Below are positions 54,001-57,000 of a DNA stretch of 64,000 nucleotides, one piece after another (position 1 is the first letter of the stretch; every line of letters starts with the position of its first letter). Made by a program: the position numbers. The stretch is taken from assembly GCF_003334385.1 (NCBI RefSeq), contig NZ_QOWN01000001.1; one strand, 5' to 3'. Origin of the DNA: Escherichia coli. Its GTDB lineage: Bacteria; Pseudomonadota; Gammaproteobacteria; Enterobacterales; Enterobacteriaceae.

Positions 54001-57000
54001 CCCCGGGAAGTCACCTTTCAGCCACTTCATTTATGGATTATACGCGGCCTGCACTGAGTTACGTCCATGTAGCTCATCTGACGTTCAGCCGCTTTATCTC
54101 GTGCTGTTCTGGTCTCAATACTTCCATGCCGTTGCAATTACCTCTTAAACCATTCCTTACCATTTTCATGTCTTCGATAAGAAATCTTCATCATGCATGA
54201 TCGATTTTGTCGATCGATTCGATCGAATTTTCTCTTTTTACCCTGTCTTTTGCATGGTTTTAAAATAAGCAACCTTCTTTATCGTGCGGGTAAGAACCAA
54301 CGGAGATGATTGAAATGAAAAAGGTTATTGTTGTTTCAGCGCTTGCTATGGCGGGCGTATTTTCAGCCCAGGCTCTGGCTGATAGGGGTAAAACAGGCTT
54401 TTATGTGACCGGTAAAGCTGGTGCTTCGGTTGTGACTCAGACTGACCAGCGCTTCCGTCAGGACTTTGGGGATGATGTTTATAAGTATAAGGGCGGTGAT
54501 AAAAACGATACTGTATTTGGTGCAGGCCTTGCGGTGGGCTATGATTTTTATCAACATTACAATGTTCCTGTGCGCACGGAAGTGGAATTCTATGGCCGCG
54601 GAGCTGCAGACTCCCATTATACACTGGATACATGGCATTCTCCGATGGGGGATGGTGGTCGGGAAGACACACAGAACAGGCTCAGTGTGAATACCCTGAT
54701 GGTGAATACGTATTATGACTTCAGAAACAGCAGTGCATTCACTCCATGGGTGTCTGTTGGACTGGGTTATGCACGGATACATCATAAGGCAACATATACT
54801 GATACCTCCTGGAATAAATCTGGTGAGGTGAGCGATATTTCTGCGTTGCATTACTCGGGATATGATAACAATTTCGCATGGAGCATTGGGGCCGGTGTTC
54901 GCTATGACATAACCCCGGATATCGCTCTTGACCTCAGCTATCGCTATCTGGATGCTGGTAAATCCTCCCTGTCTTACAAGGATGCAGAAGGGGATAAATA
55001 TAAATCAGAGGCTGACGTTAAAAGTCACGACATCATGTTTGGTGTGACTTATAACTTCTGACGACACTGCTCCTGAGCGATAATTACACATATTCAGTAA
55101 TTAAGATATTTATATATCTTCTGCAACTAAACAGAAATACCCTGCAGTAATATACCGCAGGGTTATTTGTTTCACAGGAGATTTATGGTTTTTATTATCT
55201 TATTCCCTTTATAATAATATTACCGATATATTCCGATGAATATCAGAAAACTGTTTTGTCCGGGCAATACACCCCGGATTTTATTGTTTTTATTCTTTTT
55301 TGTTGTTTCTGTCATAACCACAATTGCATGCGGATACACTGAGAAGAATGCCACCGGGAATGTGTTGCTGCTGTTCCTTCTTCTGCTCCTTGCACACAGA
55401 AATACCCTCACATCCATTACAGCGCTGTTATTTCTGTTCTGTTGTGCACTGTATGCGCCTGCCGGTATGACGTACGGTAAAATCAACAACAGTTTTATTG
55501 TCGCGTTGTTGCAGACCACAACTGATGAGGCAGCGGAGTTTACCGGGATGATTCCTGTTTATCATTTTCTGGTCAGTGCCGCGATTCAGGTATTCATGGT
55601 GATTTTCTGGCGAACACACCGCCGTGGTCACCGTAACTGGCTGGCACTGCTGCTGTTCGTATTATGCTCAATAAACAGCTGGCCGTTGCGGATGGTTAAA
55701 GGAACTGTTGTGGGGACAACTGACACATTGCGTGAAATGCAGCGTTATAAACAACTGAATCAGCACGGGGCTGACAACTGGAAAATCCTGCCGGGTGTAC
55801 CGTTGTATGACACGATTGTTATCGTCACTGGTGAGAGTGTGCGCAGGGATTATATGTCGGTATATGGCTATCCCGTGCCAACCACGCCGTGGCTGAATAC
55901 GGCACCCGGTTTATTTATTGACGATTATACCTCGACAGCCTCCAGTACAGTGTCTTCCCTGAGCCGGACACTGATTTATGACTATGAGCAGAACCCTGAT
56001 TCCGGCAACAATGTGGTGGCGCTGGCAGCAAAAGCAGGATACAGCACATGGTGGATATCCAATCAAGGAAAACTGGGGGAGCATGACACACGCATCTCTG
56101 TTATTGCTTCTGATGCGGAGCATGCCACTTTCCTCAAGAAAGGCAGCTTCGCTTCCCGTAAAACAGATGACAAACTGTTGTTACAGGAAACAGAACGTGC
56201 GCTGGCGGATACATCCTCTCCGAAGATAATTTTCCTGCACATGATGGGTTCTCATCCAAATCCGTGTGACAGCCTTAACTCCTAGCCGAATAATTACCTG
56301 GAGCAGTATCCCCGAAAAATTGCCTGTTACCTCGCCAGCATCAGTAAACTGGATAACTTTCTTGGCCAGCTTGATGGTATCCTTCGCCGGTACTCACGTC
56401 ATTTCGCCATGCTTTACTTTTCTGGCCTTGGGCTGTCGGTCAGCGACAGTGCCAATCCTGTTCATCATTATGGTCATGTGCAGGGAGGCTACAGTGTGCC
56501 ACTGATTATTACCGCCAGTGACATAACGTCTCATCAGCCCGTCAGTAGAAAAATCAGTGCCCGTCATTTCGCAGGTATTTTTCAGTGGCTGACCGGCATT
56601 CGTACTGAAAATATACCGCCATTCAATCCGCTGACAGACGAAGATAATGAACTCATTATGGTTTTTAACGGAGACAAGAATGTACCGACAGACAGCCTTG
56701 AGTCACAGCCTCTGATTCTTCCGGGCAAGGGAAAATAAGAGTAATGTTCATCACCAGGTTATGTACGATGAGTTTTCCACTGTTTATAGCAATTATCTTG
56801 CTAATAACCAGGAGTAACCAGACCAACCGAAAACTCCGGGGAGGTGATTACCCGCTGGCAGGATAAATCTGTAGTTTTTGATGCCAGCTATAACGTGTTT
56901 GACGATAAAGTATTACGAAAGAACTTTAATGAGTTCATGGAGTAATTCGTTAAAGTAATTTACAACGCTATCCTTTTGCAAAGGAAACTTTCAGAAAATA

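Follow-up and report, generated by a model that had tools for sequence, protein, structure and literature searches.

A conserved triple-GATC block upstream of the Escherichia coli hek gene as a candidate methylation-sensitive operator

The DNA described here is a stretch of 64,000 nucleotides from an Escherichia coli contig (NZ_QOWN01000001.1, assembly GCF_003334385.1), called the window throughout. In it a pap operon is followed by an adhesin gene of the hek/hra1 type, and between the two lies a compact block containing three GATC sites, the target of Dam methylation. The block probably serves as an epigenetic on/off control of this adhesin family.

The adhesin gene (54315–55061, plus strand) encodes a 248-amino-acid beta-barrel outer membrane adhesin/invasin that matches Pfam OMP_b-brl with E = 8.5e-22. 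The product is called "invasion outer membrane protein Tia" both in RefSeq (annotation in strain S88) and as its cluster name. The Hra family comprises Hra1, Hra2, Tia, Hek and Hes (PMC5539235). The gene is placed in that family by the OMP_b-brl domain, by the Tia cluster name, and by allele divergence that falls in discrete blocks, consistent with surface loops. Its start, ATG 54315, is the one annotated by RefSeq for the same gene in other genomes, with a GGAG at 54302–54305; an in-frame ATG at 54306 was rejected as the start for having no usable ribosome-binding-site spacing. On the upstream side, papG (class II) ends at 53955, and a 63-bp integrase pseudogene remnant on the minus strand (54030–54092) lies between it and the hek module. 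A partial integrase ends at the equivalent position in two of the other loci collected, L003 and L004 (RefSeq). The pap switch sites, GATC-dist at 45284 and GATC-prox at 45386, are 102 bp apart upstream of papB. The triple-GATC block lies 244 bp beyond the end of papG and stops 90 nt short of the hek ATG. An earlier note on this DNA had described three Dam sites within 26 bp, about 90 bp before an adhesin gene and 3' of a Dam-regulated pap operon, and this description of the layout is correct.

The block, GATCGATTTTGTCGATCGATTCGATC (54199–54224, plus strand), has GATC-1 at 54199–54202, GATC-2 at 54212–54215 and GATC-3 at 54221–54224, giving start-to-start spacings of 13 and 9 bp. The full window sequence across the three sites is catGATCGATTttgtcGATCGATTcGATCGAAttttc. 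The repeat GATCGATT is exact at 54199 and 54212, while the third copy reads GATCGAAT. No other GATC triple of the window is as compact: this one spans 26 bp, the runner-up 40 bp. The earlier note had also stressed the rarity of such a cluster. The tightness stands, but its significance was overstated: at the actual density of 1 GATC per 348 bp (184 sites), a 64-kb stretch should contain 0.37 triples within 26 bp, and random placement yields at least one in about 30% of cases. We therefore rejected the raw count as evidence of function, since it is not significant alone, and the case for function rests on conservation. The longer form GATCG-N7-CGATC occurs once in the window (54199–54215) versus 0.07 expected (7 in 100 shuffles).

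The surroundings of the block are poor in GATC. The nearest sites outside it are at 53632 and 57309, and between 46236 and 57309 there are only five: the block's three and another two in papG. A desert of 7.19 kb (46240–53430), reaching from inside papA to papG, contains none where trinucleotide counts predict about 20; other 4-bp palindromes in it are near expectation. Another 3.09 kb (54225–57308), covering hek and the phosphoethanolamine transferase gene behind it, is also free of GATC. Since the surrounding 11 kb is otherwise almost GATC-free, the three sites of the block are not a composition effect. Elsewhere in the window there is another long gap of 4.3 kb (11089–15374), an overlapping tandem GATCGATC at 43081–43088, and close pairs at 38831/38836, 22106/22112 and 63929/63936.

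The block is followed by a predicted promoter. A consensus scan finds one sigma-70-like site from the block to the gene, TTTACC–18 nt–TAAAAT (54237–54266, plus strand), with the -35 at 54237 and the -10 at 54266 and a consensus score of 9/12. The block ends 12 bp before this conserved predicted -35, and a T-rich stretch runs from the one to the other. Counting from a predicted start at about 54273, GATC-1, -2 and -3 would fall at -74, -61 and -52 and the end of the block at -49. Operator and promoter together form a conserved regulatory core (54160–54270, plus strand) at the left end of a mobile hek/phosphoethanolamine-transferase module. In alignments A1–A3, different genomic contexts become homologous at about 54158. 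By eye, the hek upstream region has no convincing Fur box, CRP site, PhoP box, sigma-54 site or alternative -35/-10 pair.

The strongest evidence that the block is a functional element is its conservation. We sampled 130 copies, mostly from metagenomes. The bait was the promoter core alone, which left the block itself unselected. Mean entropy per alignment column, over 50 haplotypes, is 0.23 bit in the block. It rises to 0.66 over the 37 bp on its upstream side and to 0.84 across the 12-bp linker between block and -35, and is 0.59 in the 5' untranslated region and early coding sequence. Variation peaks in the linker, which shows the block and the promoter to be constrained independently of each other. 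The same picture is seen in alignments A2 and A3, taken from Basic Local Alignment Search Tool (BLAST) hits, where the block and TTTTACC...TAAAAT are near-invariant while the flanks differ by 15–25%. The near-invariance of the promoter stretch in A3 is free of the bait, since that alignment is BLAST-derived and the promoter was no selection criterion in it. The proteins encoded behind the same operator go down to 63–68% amino-acid identity. Within the block, GATC bases (0.21 bit) and non-GATC bases (0.25 bit) are under similar constraint, which suggests a protein-binding site. The three GATCs are thus embedded, within the control region, in a conserved 26-bp island whose status as a regulator site is putative, based on conservation and dyad symmetry.

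The spacing of the sites is also kept. Among 116 metagenome copies, the 13+9 geometry is found in 94, a 13+9+9 form in 14 and fewer sites in 8, so that 13+9 is retained overall in 108 (93%). The 13+9+9 lineage has duplicated the 9-bp unit and thereby gained a fourth GATC. Natural alleles also include the L017 type, with GATC-2 changed to GAGC and GATC-3 broken, the L021 type, with GATT in place of GATC-1, and the L009 type, which has a 45-bp deletion; L008 represents the O157 type lacking GATC-3, and L007 has four sites. The pair most universally retained across lineages is GATC-1/2. We considered the idea of recurrent "locking" selection on the GATCs and dropped it, since the density of within-lineage mutations is neither depleted nor enriched in the block.

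The element is widespread in E. coli and always attached to the same type of gene. A 111-bp query (54165–54275) finds matches in 1682 of 5426 complete E. coli genomes and a 60-bp query centred on the block in 1514, so that about 30% of genomes carry the block and promoter core. Carriers include strains S88 (NC_011742.1:3230488-3230547) and ATCC 11775 (CP033092.2:862271-862330). A hek-family gene is always downstream, across at least five unrelated flanking contexts. The upstream flanks include papG with the integrase remnant, an integrase remnant by defence genes, atoS, an H-NS paralogue, and a plasmid; a further one is a GTPase remnant after papX. Since the block recurs in contexts having no pap operon, the element belongs to hek and travels with it rather than with pap. 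A scan of 100,044 genomes, one per species, for relatives of hek finds them essentially in Escherichia only; the cross-species matches are E. coli-like contigs, some mislabelled, and distant Desulfovibrionaceae proteins. No deeper phylogenetic footprint is possible because of this confinement.

Several neighbours of the element deserve description. In one lineage, a small uncharacterised gene, placed under this operator and promoter, lies between the promoter and the hek-family gene (L001 3211–3579; L002 3208–3465); its 122-aa product has one predicted hydrophobic segment and no NCBIfam match. In the four-GATC lineage (L007, with an hra2-like allele), an H-NS-family paralogue is found upstream and a gene for a helix-turn-helix regulator downstream (L007 1835–2308 and 3784–4680; L008 2017–2388), and these two are possible lineage-specific co-regulators. 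In the window, hek is followed by a hairpin and T-run that is its probable terminator (55139–55163, plus strand; the scan gave the palindromic stem on the minus strand) and by a separate promoter-like site (55171–55198) upstream of the phosphoethanolamine transferase gene (55236–56741), which is usually the next gene after a hek-family gene. Relative to an intact 500-aa homologue in L003, with 1397 of 1503 nt identical, the window copy has a premature stop at 56286–56288 (Trp350 to stop). In strain S88 the gene is split by ISEc12, and in the other contexts examined (L001, L003–L005, L008, L009) it is intact. This suggests that the gene is in decay where it is linked to pap.

ATC-N9-GAT is the general box of LysR-type regulators, and the block contains two overlapping dyads of that form. 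Box A, ATCGATTTTGTCGAT (54200–54214, plus strand), is centred at about -66 from the predicted start; with the flanking G and C it makes GATCG-N7-CGATC, and the whole GATC-1/2 stretch reads GATCGATTTTGTCGATC. Box B, GTCGATCGATTCGAT (ATCGATCGATTCGAT in other alleles; 54209–54223, plus strand), spans GATC-2 and GATC-3, is centred at about -57, and lies inside the inverted repeat TCGATCG-ATT-CGATCGA (54210–54226). In the classic layout of a LysR-type activator, a recognition site is at about -65 and an activation site adjoins the -35. An activating LysR-type role is suggested for the block because box A is centred near -66 and the downstream end of the block, at -49, comes shortly before a weak -35. 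A comparable activating site is the half-site OBSD of opvAB, centred at -43, which OxyR occupies in the ON state.

The closest architectural counterpart that we find is the upstream activating sequence of the Salmonella std operon. The std operon is a bistable switch of Dam, HdfR and SeqA, in which Dam and the LysR-type activator HdfR act against each other: methylation blocks HdfR, and HdfR blocks Dam (PMC6735912). Its three GATCs, at -242, -229 and -220, occupy a 25 bp interval (Garcia-Pastor 2019, PMC6735912), and the methylome coordinates 3211792/779/770 give spacings of 13 and 9 bp (PMC9239280). Walking from Salmonella LysS led to the std locus (L145), whose upstream activating sequence reads TTACGATCATAATCATCGATCGTATCGATCTATTTTTATTG, with GATCs at L145 16956, 16969 and 16978. 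Genes for an Ail/Lom-family outer membrane protein and YfdX (L145 15261–16476) precede this sequence on the same strand as std. The spacing is identical to that of the hek block, as is the orientation toward the regulated adhesin gene, and both elements stand upstream of horizontally acquired adhesin genes. GATC-2 and -3 are the two sites in std that are essential for HdfR binding (PMC6735912). Across them std reads ATCGATCGTATCGATC, identical at 14 of 16 positions to the L004 allele of hek, with the common core TCGATCGnnTCGATCnAnTTTT. The std and hek blocks are reciprocal best ungapped matches at 29/45, the next best being 26 and 25. The resemblance is one of architecture, as judged from the sequences, and not a demonstration of homology.

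On balance, and by a modest margin over an even chance, we favour a reading of the hek block as a methylation-sensitive LysR-type operator with three built-in Dam sites that would make hek expression bistable. The most likely regulator is HdfR, a tentative choice based on a site geometry identical to that found in the std upstream activating sequence. HdfR is a core E. coli gene, and its own promoter in K-12 has no box similar to the hek block. In the scheme that we infer, the regulator could not bind when the three GATCs are methylated, and hek would remain at a basal level. After replication, the regulator may bind the nonmethylated or hemimethylated DNA and activate the adjacent weak promoter, making the bound state ON. 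Once bound, it would shield the GATCs from Dam; the unmethylated ON state would then be inherited, and the expression of Hek would be bistable, that is, phase-variable.

A number of observations weigh against this scheme and are gathered here. Identity between std and hek outside the GATCs is 17/33 (P ~0.08), and their flanks are unrelated. The std element is about 220–240 bp upstream, while the hek block, 91–116 bp from the ATG, abuts its promoter (about -74 to -49). The std switch needs the operon-encoded StdE and StdF, whereas no std-like regulators are found near the hek block, whose neighbouring genes are limited to those for the outer membrane protein and the phosphoethanolamine transferase. 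One lineage, which includes O157:H7 strain 86-24, has no GATC-3, and one or more GATCs have been lost in about 7% of sampled copies. The neutral density of within-lineage mutations in the block, given above, belongs here as well. The promoter and start site used to place the block are predictions, resting on a 9/12 consensus. A palindromic, ATCGAT-rich sequence would produce GATCs even if methylation had no role. Finally, in the searchable open literature we find no methylome data for this locus.

The serious alternative is an ordinary operator having no epigenetic memory. Its recognition dyads would happen to contain GATC, the sites would be fully methylated, and expression would be graded. 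The equal conservation of GATC and non-GATC bases agrees with it, as do the ATCGAT and TCGATCGA palindromes, which yield GATC automatically, and the lineages that function with two GATCs, or with one after deletion. It also has a precedent in Salmonella, where most dam-responsive genes with upstream GATCs show no differential methylation (PMC9239280). It does not readily account for the exact 13+9 geometry being common to a proven methylation-sensitive site in std, for the gain of a fourth GATC through duplication of the unit in one lineage, or for the persistence of three GATCs in 11 kb where the sequence is almost free of them. We consider this alternative unlikely.

Equally unlikely is an OxyR/Dam switch of the agn43/gtr/opvAB type, in which an OxyR tetramer would sit on box A and a weak neighbouring half-site and be blocked by methylation. 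OxyR is the main alternative to HdfR as the regulator, and the mechanism would be of one kind with the scheme favoured above. The O-antigen glucosylation operon gtr (phage P22/Salmonella) undergoes Dam/OxyR phase variation (Broadbent 2010, PMC2909390). Two of its OxyR half-sites, A (GATCGGTAACAACGATC) and C (GATCGCTTGTATCGATC), have been validated as methylation-sensitive and contain GATC pairs 13 bp apart (PMC2909390). In gtr and in hek, the paired GATCs have the exact form GATCG-N7-CGATC and adjoin the -35 on its upstream side, and in gtr methylation abolishes binding. The same form occurs in GATC-II/III of agn43 (flu, K-12), GATCGTTTATATCGATC. Like hek, agn43, which encodes an autoaggregation adhesin, is an adhesin gene with three GATCs within one regulator site, which in hek is putative. 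Box A scores 7/10 on the OxyR half-site consensus ATAGnTnnnAnCTAT, or 8/10 in alleles with A at 54209. Moreover, the 37-mer at 54200 is the best match of the window to the agn43 site (24/37). The agn43 site itself, in the register ACGATCAATATCTAT-N7-ATCGTTTATATCGAT, scores 14/20 on the consensus by hand, a better fit than in the ATCT-N7-CGAT register. The std box A, ATCATAATCATCGAT, in contrast, is unlike an OxyR half-site. The retention of GATC-1/2 as the most universal pair across lineages also speaks for OxyR.

The difficulty with OxyR is the rest of its binding site. Partner half-sites at 22 or 32 bp spacing are not acceptable: 54178, 54222, 54168 and 54232 score 3, 4, 5 and 5/10 by hand, so none exceeds 5/10 at either canonical spacing. 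The weaker agn43 half-site scores 6/10. Generic full-site scoring was tried and set aside as non-specific, since hek scores 11/20 and 568 window sites score at least that. The layouts differ too. The gtr region has two GATC pairs and a central half-site, 32 bp apart, with alternative occupancy AB or BC, whereas in hek one pair is joined by a third GATC at a distance of 9 bp, and no second half-site can be recognised. The agn43 spacing is 19 and 13 bp over 36 bp, versus 13 and 9 over 26 bp in hek, and the agn43 site is downstream of the start site with OxyR as a repressor, while the hek block is upstream of the -35. Known OxyR sites offer nothing equivalent to GATC-3 or to the 9-bp spacing, both of which std has. 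Some regulator other than HdfR or OxyR is less probable still.

A structural or neutral feature is a distant possibility: a terminator or insulator hairpin ending read-through from pap, a scar of cassette recombination, or a chance cluster. A terminator scan flags the inverted repeat at 54210–54226 and the T-run after it, about 40 bp separate the block from the left edge of the mobile module, with an integrase remnant close by, and a triple GATC would arise by chance at the frequency given above. The predicted RNA fold, however, at -9.4 kcal/mol, is not more stable than those of shuffled sequences (z = -0.87), the block is kept in contexts with nothing upstream to terminate, and an Rfam search gives no match. 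A chance cluster is excluded because the block is conserved well above its flanks.

In the pap mechanism, a pair of GATCs some 102 bp apart is set in two Lrp-site triplets, and PapI and PapB are required as well. The least probable explanation is a switch of that Lrp/PapI/Dam type, or regulatory coupling to the upstream operon: it can point to the proximity of papG in this window and to GA(T/A)TTTT after GATC-1 and GATC-3, faintly like the pap "GATCTTTT", but it is largely refuted by an architecture with three sites in 26 bp and no second site, by the occurrence of the element mostly away from pap, and by the lack of an accompanying papI- or papB-like gene. Dam sites in adhesin control regions of the same pathogenicity island are what pap and hek have in common, and no other pap feature is seen in the hek block. 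The earlier note had proposed methylation-dependent or phase-variable control of the adhesin, with a connection to pap. The first part retains indirect support from the conserved island, the std geometry and the OxyR half-site form. The link to pap is not upheld, given that the block also occurs by atoS, by the H-NS paralogue, by integrase remnants and on a plasmid where there is no pap operon. Nor is the implied Lrp/pap-type mechanism, given the architecture just described.

In the searchable open literature, we find no report of phase-variable Hek, Hra1 or Tia expression, no Dam, GATC, OxyR or HdfR control of hek, hra1 or tia, no paper containing the block sequence, and nothing on the control of native Hra-family genes. 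Within that literature, control of hek by a Dam/LysR-type switch, as suggested here, is probably previously undescribed. Hra-family proteins serve as virulence markers, and their characterisation has relied largely on cloned genes driven by foreign promoters. One such study is PMC5539235.

It is conceivable, although we hold it to be less likely than not, that one Dam switch governs all of the E. coli Hra-family genes (hek, hra1, hra2, tia and hes) in about 30% of strains, including extraintestinal pathogenic (ExPEC), Shiga toxin-producing (STEC) and enteroaggregative (EAEC) E. coli, and that the 13+9 module is the HdfR-responsive element of std. If so, HdfR would be a conserved enterobacterial regulator of an "epigenetic adhesin switch", and the natural alleles with GATC loss, deletion or duplication would represent lineage-specific tuning or locking of it. 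Natural mutants with one, two, three or four GATCs at the same locus are suited to the study of how site number and spacing affect switching rate. A Dam switch at hek would be the fifth well-defined one in E. coli/Salmonella and the first for an adhesin that is neither fimbrial nor an autotransporter, and HdfR (or OxyR) would thereby gain a part in the heterogeneity of E. coli virulence genes. If the ON or OFF state is inherited, most laboratory cultures may be largely OFF, and phenotype, vaccine and serology data on these proteins would have to be reread at the single-cell level.

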